From a virus (lineage: Duplodnaviria; Heunggongvirae; Uroviricota; Caudoviricetes): a stretch of DNA of 43,137 bases. Where the stretch lies: IMG/VR virus record IMGVR_UViG_2541047960_000005; one strand, 5' to 3'. Positions 3,962-7,360 of the stretch are shown one piece after another (the first letter of the stretch is position 1; each line of letters starts with the position of its first letter). The position numbers were made by a program, and so were the translations under genes. The notes below the pieces were generated by a model, which was given only the letters and a program-made list of their open reading frames with translations, was not told the DNA's origin and searched no databases.

Positions 3962-4089
3962 GGCTTCCTCAGCTGACTTATATGTTCTGCTATATAGCGA
4001 GTCTCAGAAGTGTTTTCATATTGAGACTGTTTCCGCAATGATTGATAAAAATGTTCGCATGTACCTTGAGGGGCGAAGCGGCGATTATG

Positions 4090-4593
4090 TCACCATTGGT
4101 ATTGGTTCTTCCGCAGAAGAGCTTCGCGAGATAAGGGGCAAACTTGTTGAGATGCGTCATGGTGTTGCTGCTCCTCACTTTTTGGTTGCTCCGGAGGAGT
4201 AACCTCACCAGTTAACAGCCACATCGGATCGCAGCCAAGAATATTTGCCAGTGGGATAAGCATACTGATAGTTGGTTCATACTCTCCGCTCTCCCACTGG
4301 ATGATAATTTCTTCATCGAGATCGAGCAGCCTGGCGAGTTCGGCGGTTGTTAAGCCGCAGGCTTCGCGTTGGGTGCGAAGACGGTTGTTGATTGCAGAAT
4401 TTTTGTTCTGTAAAAGCATTGCTGACGATAGCTTTCTGGATATGCTATTTGTCATATCCCATGCCAGTCCTGCGCATGACTCTATATCGCTAGAGAGCGT
4501 AGCATCAGGTGTTGCTTTTGCTATTAGTGTAATGAGGCTGCCGAGGTTTTTCAGTTCTTCGAGACAGTCAAGAGTTGTAGCTTTATTGATCAT
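4090..4593 (-). CDS. HTH (XRE-family) DNA-binding protein at the first position of the leftward operon
   Basis: Central segment LRTQREACGLTTAELARLLDLDEEIIIQWESGEYEPTISMLIPLANILGCDPMWLLTGE is a classic XRE helix-turn-helix; GAGG upstream of ATG 4593; start overlaps an operator-like TGATAC site. Confidence 0.6.
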   Translation of the reverse strand: MINKATTLDCLEELKNLGSLITLIAKATPDATLSSDIESCAGLAWDMTNSISRKLSSAMLLQNKNSAINNRLRTQREACGLTTAELARLLDLDEEIIIQWESGEYEPTISMLIPLANILGCDPMWLLTGEVTPPEQPKSEEQQHHDASQQVCPLSREALLRKNQYQW

Positions 4594-4696
4594 GAGATGA
4601 TACCTCAGTTACGAACTTTGTTTTATGGTAACTAAGGTATCAAGGCGTGGCAAGTGATTTTTGATACTTTGGTTTCTTTTTGTGTTTTGTGTCTGG
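4594..4696. promoter_or_regulatory. operator/promoter region downstream of cI (OL/pL-like)
   Basis: Half-sites TGATAC (4598-4603), GTATCAA (4637-4643, inverted) and TTGATAC (4661-4667), matching sites on the other side of cI. Confidence 0.4.
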
Positions 4697-5353
4697 TCAG
4701 AAAATATCCCACCTGGCATCAACCACAACACCTACTATTTCGCAATCATTGTCCATTTCTATGATTGGATATTGTGGATTAAGGGGCTTTAGAAACGCCT
4801 TTCCCATGTCAGAAATATATTTTTTGAATGTTGCTTCATTGGTAGATTTTTTTCTGGCGATGACGTAACACCCTGAAAAAACTTCTTTATCTGGGTTGAC
4901 AAGGATCGACATTCCTTCAGGAAATGTTATTCCTACGGGCGAAGTCATTGAGTCTCCGTGCACTTCCAGCCAGAACCCCCTCTCACCAGCGTATTTTACA
5001 GAATGCCTCCAATTATCCTGATCATACATGTTGTAGTCATCACCAGAAGTTGCGAATAATCCTGCCTGAACCCAGTTAATTACAGGGTAAGAGTGTGCTG
5101 TGTCTCTCTGTGGGCAGCTCTTAACATTATTTTCCCAATGCTTATCTTTTTCATCTCCGTTCTGAAGCCACTGCGGTGAACACCGCAGTGCAGCTGCAAC
5201 TTTAAAAAGGGTGTCACCGTTGAAACTTTTTGTAAGGCCTTGCTCGGCTTTACTGATTGCAACTCTGGTGACCCCAGCTTTTTTAGCCAACGCATTTTGT
5301 GTTAACCCAGCTTTTTGCCGTGCGTTGATGAGACGTTCACCTAAAGACTTCAT
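4697..5353 (-). CDS. cI: CI-type prophage repressor (N-terminal HTH plus C-terminal LexA-like S24 peptidase)
   Basis: ATG at 5353 with GAGGAG upstream; N-terminal LTQNALAKKAGVTRVAISKAEQG; C-terminal S24 motifs including AG and VHGDSMTSP. Confidence 0.85.
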   Translation of the reverse strand: MKSLGERLINARQKAGLTQNALAKKAGVTRVAISKAEQGLTKSFNGDTLFKVAAALRCSPQWLQNGDEKDKHWENNVKSCPQRDTAHSYPVINWVQAGLFATSGDDYNMYDQDNWRHSVKYAGERGFWLEVHGDSMTSPVGITFPEGMSILVNPDKEVFSGCYVIARKKSTNEATFKKYISDMGKAFLKPLNPQYPIIEMDNDCEIVGVVVDARWDIF

Positions 5354-5464
5354 TTTTCTTCTCCTCTCATGGCTGTTGATACTAAAGTAACAGAATTTCT
5401 TGATACTTTGGGTTCCTGTGGTTAACATCGTTGGATAACAAAGTATCTGGTGTGAGACTAAAGA
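5354..5464. promoter_or_regulatory. operator/divergent promoter region upstream of cI (OR-like)
   Basis: TTGATAC at 5376-5382 and 5400-5406; 9-bp inverted repeat GATACTTTG (5402-5410) / CAAAGTATC (5439-5447); 24- and ~40-bp spacings mirror the OL side. Confidence 0.45.
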
Positions 5465-5692
5465 ATGACCCTTTATGAAATATTAAAAATTCAATTTAAA
5501 ACCAATGCCGCTATTGGTCGCAGGTTCCCAAAGAAAGGAAGGCCTCGTGGCAGTCAAGGTGTTGGAAAGTGGAAAACGCGAGGTGTTCCGGAGGATGTTG
5601 CCATTCTTTGTCATCTGGATCCGAGCATTCCATATACACACCCAAGTCTAGCGAATACAGAAGATGACAAGCCCACAGGAGACCAACAATGA
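5465..5692 (+). CDS. ORF at the cro position (doubtful)
   Basis: 75-aa ORF whose stop overlaps the next start (ATGA), but no recognisable HTH and a weak ribosome-binding site. Confidence 0.25.
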   Translation: MTLYEILKIQFKTNAAIGRRFPKKGRPRGSQGVGKWKTRGVPEDVAILCHLDPSIPYTHPSLANTEDDKPTGDQQ

Positions 5693-6396
5693 ACACCGCA
5701 ATTTTTAACGGCAAAGCATCCATGACCAGCGTTGAGATCGCAGAGCTGGTGGGAAGCCGACCAGATAGTGTTAAGAGAACTATTGAAACACTGGCTAAAA
5801 AGGGAATCATCCAATTTCCACAGACTGTGGAAATTGAGAATAAACAATCACTTGGGCCTCGCCGATTTTCTAGCGCGTATGTATTCGAAGGTGAACGAGG
5901 TAAGCGCGACAGCATCATTGTCGTCGCACAGCTCTGTCCTGAATTCACAGCTCGCCTGGTAGATCGCTGGCGCGAACTGGAAGAACAGATCCGTAAGCCA
6001 ATGAGCGAAATCGAAATGGTTGCCGCGATGGCTCTTGAAGCCGTTCGCCAACAGAAACGGATCACTCAGGTGGAAGAAAAAGTCAGCCACGTTGCTGAAA
6101 CAGTCGAGCAAATTAAAAAGGGCACTATTCGTGAGGGCTATGCCGGATATCGCCAACTGAAAGCAAAAACCGGTTTGTCAGATGATAAATGCCGCAATCT
6201 GGTGAACGCCTATCAGATTCCTACAGACACCCATGAGTTCATGACGCCGGACGGATTGTTGTCACGTCGCGCAATTGTTGCTGTGGAACCGTTTATGGCT
6301 GCTTTTTATCGGGTTATGGAGGAAGCAGAACCGCGAGGGACTCGCTGGTATCACCCGAAAATGGGGTTATTTCAGGTTATTGGTTGGCAGCGGTGA
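5689..6396 (+). CDS. phage antirepressor-like regulatory protein (tentative)
   Basis: AGGAG 7 nt upstream of ATG 5689; N-terminal MTSVEIAELVGSRPDSVKRTIETLAKKGII and central ...LVDRWRELEEQ resemble phage antirepressor families; not confirmed by search. Confidence 0.5.
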   Translation: MNTAIFNGKASMTSVEIAELVGSRPDSVKRTIETLAKKGIIQFPQTVEIENKQSLGPRRFSSAYVFEGERGKRDSIIVVAQLCPEFTARLVDRWRELEEQIRKPMSEIEMVAAMALEAVRQQKRITQVEEKVSHVAETVEQIKKGTIREGYAGYRQLKAKTGLSDDKCRNLVNAYQIPTDTHEFMTPDGLLSRRAIVAVEPFMAAFYRVMEEAEPRGTRWYHPKMGLFQVIGWQR

Positions 6397-6420
6397 AAAA
6401 AAAGCCGGGAGTAACCCGGC
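6393..6420 (-). terminator. intrinsic terminator oriented for leftward transcription
   Basis: A8 run then hairpin GCCGGG-AGTAA-CCCGGC (6404-6420); on the minus strand this is a hairpin followed by U8. Confidence 0.5.
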
Positions 6421-6615
6421 TCACTCAACATCAATAACGGGGAGCTGTTTCGCATAAAACGGCTCTGAAACATCCAAGAACAGTTCTAAAGATATCAGCA
6501 GCTATATGATCATTTCAAGACCAAATATTGATTCTGCAATTTCGGGACGTTACACTGTCTCTGCACCTTATAAAGCGGGTGCCGGGCGTGGAAACCCGAA
6601 ATTCAATATAGAGCA

Positions 6616-6638
6616 CAACCGCGCTCATGCGGTTTTTT
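6616..6638 (+). terminator. intrinsic terminator (rightward)
   Basis: Hairpin AACCGC-GCTCAT-GCGGTT followed by T6. Confidence 0.5.
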
Positions 6639-6808
6639 CGTGTCATGAGCATCGTTACGCCCAAATTATGGTGGGGCGTGCAGGGCCAACTTCGGTTGGG
6701 CCGGGTTCTATGTTGACCGGTATTTCCACCCCTGTACGTCTCACCACCTATATGGTCGTGGAAAGCCTTGGTGGTGAGTTCATTGAATTCAACATAGGGG
6801 CTGTCACC

Positions 6809-7360
6809 ATGACTACTCTCCCAACCCAATCTCGCCCTGAAATCACGATTATCAATGGTCGCGTTGTCACCACATCTCTTGCAGTAGCTAATTACTTTAC
6901 TAAACGGCATGAGCGGGTTTTAGATAGAATTAGAAACCTCGAATGTTCCGCTGAATTTACTGAACACAATTTTGTGTTAAGTGAATACACCGACGCATCA
7001 GGCCGCAAACTCCCTTGTTACCAAATCACCCGCGACGGTTTTGCGTTTCTTGCCATGGGCTTCACTGGTAAACGTGCTGCCCAGTTCAAAGAGGCATACA
7101 TCAACGCCTTTAACCAGATGGAGAAGAATTTATCTGGTGCTGACGCGGTTGATATGTCAGCTGTCGCACGAAACGCCAGAGGCGTATACCTGCATTTGCG
7201 TGAAATCCATCAAATCTGGACAAGCCAGCTTTATCCAATGCTTAAGGCCGTTGAATCTCCGCTGGCTAGCAAACTGTACGACCGTGTTGGTGATGCTGTT
7301 TTTGGCGCTGCACTTGTTGATTCCAGGCTGAATGGTTCTGACAAGGAGGTTCGCCCATGA
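6809..7360 (+). CDS. Rha-family phage regulatory protein
   Basis: ATG 6809 preceded by AGGGG; motifs VVTTSLAVANYFTKRHERVLDRIRN and YQITRDGFAFLAMGFTGKRAAQFKEAYINAF match Rha; the frame is open back to 6506, so the start could be earlier. Confidence 0.7.
   Translation: MTTLPTQSRPEITIINGRVVTTSLAVANYFTKRHERVLDRIRNLECSAEFTEHNFVLSEYTDASGRKLPCYQITRDGFAFLAMGFTGKRAAQFKEAYINAFNQMEKNLSGADAVDMSAVARNARGVYLHLREIHQIWTSQLYPMLKAVESPLASKLYDRVGDAVFGAALVDSRLNGSDKEVRP

Follow-up and report, generated by a model that had tools for sequence, protein, structure and literature searches.

Positions 4,594 to 5,692 of the IMG/VR virus record IMGVR_UViG_2541047960_000005 (Caudoviricetes) are the primary immunity region of a lambdoid prophage resembling phiP27; the region most likely works as a lambda-type two-repressor switch with a diverged Cro. 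The whole stretch analyzed, 43,137 nucleotides, is called the window below. The region holds the repressor gene cI (4697-5353, minus strand; 218 amino acids, aa) and, divergent from it and 111 bp from its start, a 75-aa open reading frame (ORF) that is the first rightward gene (5465-5692, plus strand) and corresponds to the cro-like gene L12, or "Cro12," of phage phiP27. A preliminary description of this DNA had placed operator arrays on both sides of cI, found no canonical cro, and proposed that the lysis-lysogeny switch is wired through an antirepressor. The immunity region with its two arrays is supported here by enrichment of the repeats, by their extension to 18-bp sites, and by conservation and covariation; the switch without a Cro is not, given the Cro fold and transitive homology of the 75-aa protein and a cI that carries a full set of self-cleavage residues.

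Judged by sequence identity, the DNA around 4594-5692 is that of a phiP27-like lambdoid prophage of Escherichia coli. Positions 4000-6500 of the window are >99% identical to prophages of many E. coli chromosomes, 93% identical to phiP27 (an Stx2e phage), and 84 to 86% identical to several phages that convert their hosts to Stx1a or Stx2a production. The cassette formed by cI and the 75-aa ORF is ~93% identical at the DNA level to L11/L12 of phiP27.

The heptamer TTGATAC occurs 10 times in the window, compared with 4.03 copies expected, a count reached in 0 of 100 shuffles. Four of the ten copies lie within the ~215 bp of intergenic DNA flanking cI, where ~0.02 are expected (4637-4643, minus strand; 4661-4667, 5376-5382, and 5400-5406, plus strand). 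A fifth copy is shortened to TGATAC (4598-4603, plus strand) and a sixth to GATAC alone (5443-5447, minus strand; 5/7). The repeats are non-random and extend beyond the heptamer, being linked as direct and inverted repeats of 14 to 26 nucleotides (nt), and all six sites, when oriented alike, are 18-bp pseudo-palindromes of the form TTGATAC-N4-GTATCAA, with one good half (5-7/7) and one weaker half (3-5/7) in each. Scanning the whole window with a palindrome consensus, which was derived from the very sites that it scored, returned 13 matches of at least 10/14 versus 12.6 by shuffle, a total that equals chance; 6 of the 13 fall inside the 215 bp, and it is this clustering alone that is informative.

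The sites are arranged around two predicted promoters, both overlapped by operators; the intergenic DNA on either side of cI has no other sigma-70-like match. To the right of cI, the consensus scan predicts PR (TTGATA-17-TAACAT; 5400-5428, plus strand), whose -35 element and the TA...T of whose -10 element are conserved across genera. The cI-nearest site, OR-a (TTGATACTAAAGTAACAG; 5376-5393), would be the analogue of lambda OR3; OR-b (TTGATACTTTGGGTTCCT; 5400-5417) overlaps the PR -35 element as the analogue of OR2; and OR-c (TGGATAACAAAGTATCTG; 5432-5449), the analogue of OR1, lies just past the -10 element, over the start site. To the left, PL (TTGCCA-17-TACCAT; 4625-4653, minus strand) is predicted by the consensus scan only. 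OL-c (TTGATACTTTGGTTTCTT; 4661-4678) sits just upstream of its -35 element and is a direct repeat of OR-b (81% over 26 nt); OL-b (minus-strand reading TTGATACCTTAGTTACCA; 4626-4643) covers its spacer and -10 element; and OL-a (ATGATACCTCAGTTACGA; 4597-4614), which forms an inverted repeat with OL-b (93%), lies downstream of the PL start, where it overlaps both the start codon and the ribosome-binding site of the first gene in the leftward early operon, which is L10-like. We read these repeats as ordinary lambdoid OL and OR operators, three over PL and three over PR.

Operator centers are 29 and 35 bp apart in OL and 24 and 32 bp apart in OR. The preliminary description reported matching spacings of 24 and ~40 bp on the two sides of cI; these hold for heptamer starts (left side, 39 and 24; right side, 24 and ~43) but not for the centers. 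Equal, mirrored spacing as the sign of a special looped architecture was therefore rejected as an artefact of measuring from heptamer starts in oppositely oriented sites.

For comparison we assembled related loci from five further E. coli prophages and ten loci of eight other genera (Raoultella, Yersinia, Phytobacter, Photorhabdus, Providencia, Pantoea, Xenorhabdus, and Proteus). OR consists of three sites with a center spacing of exactly 24 + 32 bp in 15 of 15 loci, spanning nine genera. Among the 10 lineages with TTGATAC half-sites (class A), column identity is 0.88 within operators versus 0.58 outside them, and OR-b is near-invariant. OR-c forms a clearer palindrome in relatives (GGATAC-TTAA-GTATC) than it does here. 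On the left, OL-a is unchanged in E. coli relatives despite their differing flanks, and OL-b is kept in the Raoultella, Yersinia, Phytobacter, Photorhabdus, Pantoea, and Xenorhabdus loci.

Five loci carry GVSRVTISKIELGDSQDTRS in place of GVTRVAISKAEQGLTKSFN in the recognition region of cI. Loci in which VSRVTISKIELG replaces VTRVAISKAEQG in the cI recognition helix have T/CGAAAC half-sites where the others have TTGATAC, and these sister-class sites (T/CGAAAC-N4-GTTTCGA) occupy the positions of the TTGATAC sites. The two classes have the bases T-N-G-A-W-A-C in common, and the core of OR-a (GAWAC-TAAA-GTARCA) is conserved in both. Because the half-site covaries with the recognition helix, we infer that the sites are bound by cI, and this covariation is the strongest available evidence that they are cI operators. 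In the heteroimmune prophage of E. coli 2013C-3033, a fourth operator-like site overlaps OR-a with a 14-bp offset (L009, 2159-2190), and its OL has a like pattern of an extra overlapping operator-like site.

We also considered whether the heptamers might be something other than operators: chance or promoter-derived repeats, or targets of a different factor, for example the HTH (helix-turn-helix) protein encoded by the L10-like gene. TTGATA agrees with the -35 consensus at five of six positions, and the -35 element of PR falls on OR-b. Further, the excess of TGATAC spans the whole window (33 copies versus 14.7 expected, a number reached by no shuffle), with 28 copies outside the immunity region, an excess that is likely a matter of oligonucleotide or codon bias. 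Against this explanation, the sites share 15 to 18 bp, well beyond a hexamer, and five of the six are off any predicted -35 element. In addition, half-site and cI recognition helix change together while the positions stay fixed, and all three OR sites are retained in loci that encode a short protein without an HTH domain downstream of cI. We therefore regard a non-operator origin of the repeats as very improbable.

The repressor itself has the domains of a lambdoid cI, an N-terminal HTH_3 (Pfam E-value, 1.4e-14) and a C-terminal Peptidase_S24 (3.2e-22). Its residues A97-G98, S135, and K178 align with A111-G112, S149, and K192 of lambda cI, so that the self-cleavage set of an Ala-Gly site, a serine, and a lysine is complete. 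Because this cleavage site and the catalytic Ser135 and Lys178 align with those of lambda cI, the repressor should respond to RecA by itself. In other genera (L011-L018), a terminator consisting of a GC-rich hairpin and an A/T run lies between the cI stop codon and OL. The E. coli/phiP27 version does without this hairpin (compare 4679-4696), so cI transcripts may run on into the region of the leftward operon.

The 75-aa ORF belongs to a narrow family. A word-indexed search of 5.8 billion proteins yielded 42 matches, all at least 63% identical, and 16 were obtained when 1.8 billion cluster representatives were searched with a profile. The family is strongly conserved over residues 1 to 60 and has a C-terminal motif of its own, AILCHLDxxIPYTH. 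An AlphaFold model built on the family alignment has a mean predicted local distance difference test score (pLDDT) of 86.5, and >90 for residues 1 to 60. It consists of four helices, the second and third of which are joined by a short loop resembling a hairpin, and has the all-alpha Cro fold. Its best matches in the PDB are the Cro proteins of N15, Xfaso 1, and P22; identity to solved Cro proteins is 10 to 17%. One profile match in the PDB, of the 75-aa family to Nup358, was discarded as spurious (WK-RG-V).

The weakest of the profile matches (P0047-P0056) are textbook Cro HTHs, e.g., ...FKTQDGIARAFGVTRPAVSIWKKVGVPE..., and such relatives connect the family to P22 Cro. hhalign pairs the 75-aa family with these insertion-less relatives at 99.7% probability (E-value, 2e-25) with a single 5-residue gap, which falls exactly at the turn of the HTH (FPKKGRPRGSQ versus FGV-----TRQ). 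The length of this turn insertion is invariant in 28 of 28 family members, and its residues are mostly basic. The insertion-less group in turn can be aligned from end to end with the P22 Cro family (97.5%; E-value, 5.6e-12), its best sequence match in the PDB is P22 Cro (E-value, 3.6e-5), and 7 of its 10 members match the Pfam family P22_Cro (PF14549), 1 of them above the gathering score. The preliminary description had staked its reading on the 75-aa ORF lying outside the Cro family; by computation it appears to lie inside, through transitive profile homology to P22_Cro. What stands of that account is that the ORF is the first rightward gene and has no direct Pfam or NCBIfam match. What does not is the absence of a recognizable HTH, as an HTH with an extended turn was found.

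Gene order tells the same way. The 75-aa ORF or an insertion-less relative is divergently paired with an S24 repressor in 20 related loci of nine genera, and the gap between cI and the divergent 75-aa ORF is ~105 to 120 bp across loci; one insertion-less relative lies 120 bp from a divergent repressor with HTH_3 and S24 domains. Because predicted fold, transitive profile homology, and constant divergence from an S24 repressor agree, the 75-aa ORF is best interpreted as the cro of the cassette, a diverged all-alpha Cro of the P22/N15 type with an extended basic HTH turn. Smith et al. (2012) had already given phiP27 L12 the PCR type "Cro12," a label based on gene position (PMC3430580), and the cro12 primers of that study translate to MTLYEI and GKQSEV, one from either end of L12. 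Databases list the L12 family as hypothetical protein (RefSeq) or as of unknown function, and, the 2002 phiP27 paper of Recktenwald and Schmidt aside, we found nothing in the literature that describes the operators or the fold and HTH insertion of the protein.

Several observations weigh against a two-repressor switch with this protein as Cro. The 75-aa ORF has no PDB sequence relative, in addition to its lack of a direct Pfam or NCBIfam match; PHROGs places it in phrog_4749, "unknown function"; and the P22_Cro hidden Markov model finds no match in it at an E-value of 1 or below. A direct hhalign comparison of the 75-aa family with the P22 Cro alignment gave a probability of 1.2%, which is not significant, and homology to P22 Cro is transitive for this reason; we attribute the failure of the direct route to the low diversity of both profiles. 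The turn exceeds the 3 to 4 residues of a canonical HTH, and an HTH with a 9-residue turn may bind DNA non-classically. The putative recognition helix of the 75-aa protein (S/G-Q-x-V-G-K-W-K) shows no variation in either operator class, nor does any other column tell the two classes apart; unlike cI, the protein shows no covariation with the half-sites. Finally, candidates for the cI maintenance promoter, GTATCA-17-TAGTAT and, in some genera, TAGAAT, are not convincingly conserved, and we claim none. The best of them, GTATCA-17-TAGTAT, overlaps OR-a and OR-b.

An alternative that retains the Cro-like fold is that the 75-aa protein, as a small antirepressor or modulator, acts on cI by protein contact, as MOR does in the lactococcal phage TP901-1, where a small protein with an HTH fold is likewise encoded divergently from the repressor, in the position of cro. 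We consider this unlikely. The best structural matches of the protein are DNA-binding Cro proteins, and its insertion-less relatives, with their textbook HTH, occupy the corresponding position. The Lys/Arg-rich insertion (P-K/R-K/R-G-K/R-P/A-R) suits extra DNA contacts, and one Cro could read both operator classes, since T-N-G-A-W-A-C is shared between them and OR-a is alike in both.

The proposal of the preliminary description, that no functional Cro is present and that an antirepressor inactivates cI and drives the decision, starts from two genes directly after the 75-aa ORF, whose antirepressor- and Rha-like nature is upheld by family matches. The first (5689-6396, plus strand; 235 aa) encodes a Roi/Rha/Ant-like DNA-binding protein by Pfam and PHROGs, is annotated as Roi in phage PhiR49_2, and overlaps the stop codon of the 75-aa ORF by 4 bp (ATGA). 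The second encodes a Rha-domain protein (6809-7360, plus strand), and as in P1 immI and Gifsy-1 isrK-anrP (PMC4825925), it is preceded by a C4-type RNA and an IsrK-like leader, described below. An S24-type repressor can be acted on by an antirepressor, as in P22.

These genes do not travel with the immunity cassette, however. The gene that follows the 75-aa ORF varies by locus and can be Roi-like, bssS, or hypothetical. Among E. coli variants the place is taken by a minus-strand gene (phiP27), by bssS (cq9), or by other small ORFs; in other genera small hypothetical ORFs follow, and then replication or helicase genes. In further E. coli prophages, as in other genera, the cassette of cI, 75-aa ORF, and operators thus occurs without a nearby antirepressor gene. 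Conversely, PhiR49_2 has the L10-like and Roi flanks seen here around another cI/Cro pair. Because it keeps these flanks around a different pair, the immunity cassette and the Roi gene are independent modules, with Roi belonging to the phage backbone. The exchanged segment in PhiR49_2 (L003, 2285-3398) holds an unrelated cI (229 aa) and Cro (96 aa), a clean immunity-cassette swap. The junction after cro is an insertion hot spot (L001, 3569-4240; L006, 1798-2049; L007, 1779-2072), holding L13 on the minus strand in phiP27, a bssS-family gene in cq9, and a hypothetical gene in another strain.

Similarly, the regulatory signals do not favor an antirepressor in place of Cro. No exact copy of the LexA box CTGT-N8-ACAG is present in the window, and boxes with one mismatch are not enriched (19 versus 14.2 expected), with none upstream of 5689 or 6809. 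Antirepressor-driven induction of the Gifsy, N15, or 186 Tum type would call for a repressor incapable of self-cleavage, a LexA box over the antirepressor gene, and linkage of that gene to the cassette among relatives; none of the three is seen here. Since the next gene is not linked to the cassette, cI is self-cleavable, and the antirepressor-like genes are without a LexA box, this proposal is not supported. With the 75-aa ORF a probable Cro homologue by fold and transitive homology, and with the IsrK/C4 RNAs tracking the phiP27-type backbone even next to a different cI/Cro pair, we hold it to be highly unlikely. What survives of the earlier idea is that the Cro is non-canonical, with five extra turn residues, and that an RNA-gated gene of the Rha/Ant type lies 0.8 kb downstream; that this gene replaces Cro does not.

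The RNA-gated module (6528-7360) begins with a full-length IsrK-like leader RNA (6563-6639, plus strand; RF01394, 61.6 bits versus a gathering score of 50), which ends in its own terminator and carries two decoy sites, a1 (GTGGAAA, 6588) and b1 (TCAATATAG, 6603). A candidate promoter, TTGATT (6528)-17-TACACT (6556), lies 7 nt before its 5' end and scores below the scan threshold. A C4 antisense RNA follows (6664-6751, plus strand; RF01695, 82.4 bits versus a gathering score of 45, covering model positions 1 to 87 of 87). Its unpaired segment TTTCCAC (6723) is complementary to GTGGAAA both at 6588 and at 6758-6764 (a2), and its hairpin-loop segment CTATGTTGA (6708) pairs with TCAATATAG (6603, with one G-U) and with b2 (TCAACATAG, 6789-6797). 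These targets were called by exact motif matches and not by duplex energy, as RNAduplex with the whole C4 against its flanks was uninformative (20 of 200 shuffles reach the downstream energy).

The two RNA genes lie in a long ORF with Pfam matches to Ash and Rha (6506-7360, plus strand), of which they take up the first third. Its Ash match (aa 16-111, corresponding to nt 6551-6838) coincides with IsrK and C4, and a close relative has two PGAP "ash family protein" coding sequences with one IsrK/C4 pair within each. Since both the Pfam match and the PGAP coding sequences coincide with RNA genes, the Ash part probably represents translated RNA genes and no protein. The true start of the Rha gene is probably the in-frame ATG at 6809. 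A ribosome-binding site, AGGGG, lies eight bases before it and abuts b2, and the Rha domain starts shortly past it (Phage_pRha; E-value, 2.5e-31; aa 122-207 of the long ORF). By family resemblance (Phage_pRha and antirepressor PHROGs), the Rha-domain protein is antirepressor-like. The >99% identical prophage of E. coli AVS0969 (L004, 4063-5451) contains tandem units with three IsrK and two C4 copies, and every IsrK/C4 unit there is annotated as a separate "ash family protein."

The IsrK/C4 module was found in 5 of the 5 E. coli phiP27-type loci tested, including heteroimmune PhiR49_2, and is absent from the loci of other genera that bear the cI/cro cassette. IsrK/C4-Rha therefore looks like a separate, second layer that is an addition to Cro and no substitute for it.

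Taken together, the data suggest the following mechanism. In a lysogen, cI dimers on OR-b, OR-c, and the OL sites would shut both early operons, and the 24-bp spacing of OR-a and OR-b would permit pairwise cooperativity of cI. Upon DNA damage, RecA-stimulated self-cleavage of cI at A97-G98 would free PR. Cro would then bind the shared operator set, probably best at OR-a, and turn off cI synthesis; we propose this preference because OR-a covers the only plausible -10 element of a cI promoter and is alike in both classes. The basic loop of Cro might add DNA contacts. The Roi-like gene and the C4/IsrK-gated Rha gene could supply an extra layer resembling immI of P1 and P22. On a further reading, which we consider rather unlikely, the identity of the Cro reading helix in two heteroimmune classes would mean that Cro is not immunity-specific and either reads the shared bases and OR-a or acts on cI.

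Several neighboring features complete the region. The L10-like gene (4090-4593, minus strand; 167 aa; phrog_4739) stands in the place of lambda N and encodes an N-terminal domain followed by a C-terminal HTH_3 (Pfam E-value, 3.8e-11). In this position Raoultella, Phytobacter, and Pantoea encode a stand-alone protein of 69 to 71 aa that corresponds to its N-terminal ~60 aa (BLASTP E-value, 9e-13), e.g., at L011, 1854-2069. On the minus strand, a strong intrinsic terminator (6392-6422; 8-bp stem with 6 GC, followed by T8) lies at the stop codon of the Roi-like gene, and a promoter-like TTGAAA-18-TATCTT with a TG (6489-6518) precedes it by ~70 nt. The two might delimit a short leftward transcript that is antisense to the 3' end of Roi, like lambda oop; Rfam gave only sub-threshold similarity to terminator-bearing small RNAs for the minus strand of 6392-6518. 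Farther away, two tRNA genes and a match to the small RNA STnc100 (162 bits) at 15154-15312 and 16192-16398 are typical of the late-regulatory region of Stx-phage-like prophages.

The predicted arrangement closely resembles immC of lambda, P22 (c2/cro), and 434, in which a self-cleaving S24 repressor likewise lies between two tripartite arrays over divergent early promoters, a small cro comes first under PR, and the operators are 17- to 18-bp pseudo-palindromes in each of which a consensus half is paired with a weaker one. In lambda, OR1 and OR2 are 24 bp apart, as is one pair of sites here. Unlike in these systems, the operator sequence is new (TTGATAC-N4-GTATCAA), and OL has spacings of 29 + 35 bp. 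The OR spacing of 24 + 32 bp, as opposed to 24 + 23 bp in lambda, places the third site over the PR start rather than over the -10 element. The first gene of PL encodes an HTH protein, whereas in lambda it is N, and for phiP27 the literature reports no homologues of N, cII, or cIII (PMC3430580).

Compared with the Cro proteins of P22, N15, and Xfaso 1, the 75-aa protein has five more residues in the turn and its own C-terminal motif. Extended-turn HTHs are known from DUF2285 (PMC10359603) and the POU-specific domain, which are unrelated families; unlike in those, the extension here is a basic 5-residue insertion inside the Cro lineage, and insertion-less sister proteins are extant. The downstream module is similar to immI of P1 and P7 (c4-icd-ant) and to isrK-orf45-anrP of Gifsy-1, where C4 and IsrK with complementary targets also lie upstream of a gene of an antirepressor family. 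In P1 and P7 immI, the c4 RNA blocks translation upstream of ant. The module in the window differs from P1 immI in being located inside a lambdoid early right operon and not in a separate immI locus, and in having b2 abut the ribosome-binding site of the Rha gene itself, with no obvious icd. The Gifsy-1 arrangement has been described previously (PMC4825925).

Overall, the system is an ordinary one with a single modest variant, the extended-turn Cro, and a neighboring RNA-gated antirepressor module of a familiar type; the picture of how a lambdoid switch works is unchanged by it. The 75-aa family, which spans at least nine genera of enterobacteria, also occurs in converting phages of the Stx1a, Stx2a, and Stx2e (phiP27) types, and has been labelled hypothetical, can now be annotated as Cro. 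Its operators can be written down (TTGATAC-N4-GTATCAA, and T/CGAAAC in the sister class), which opens the way to predicting immunity groups for Stx prophages. The 5-residue turn insertion, with insertion-less sisters still extant, amounts to a small natural experiment in HTH evolution, similar to those for which the Cro family has been studied. Were Cro, against our expectation, not immunity-specific, cI would be the sole seat of specificity in this widespread enterobacterial switch, and the Cro of one phage could act on the switch of a heteroimmune prophage in the same cell.

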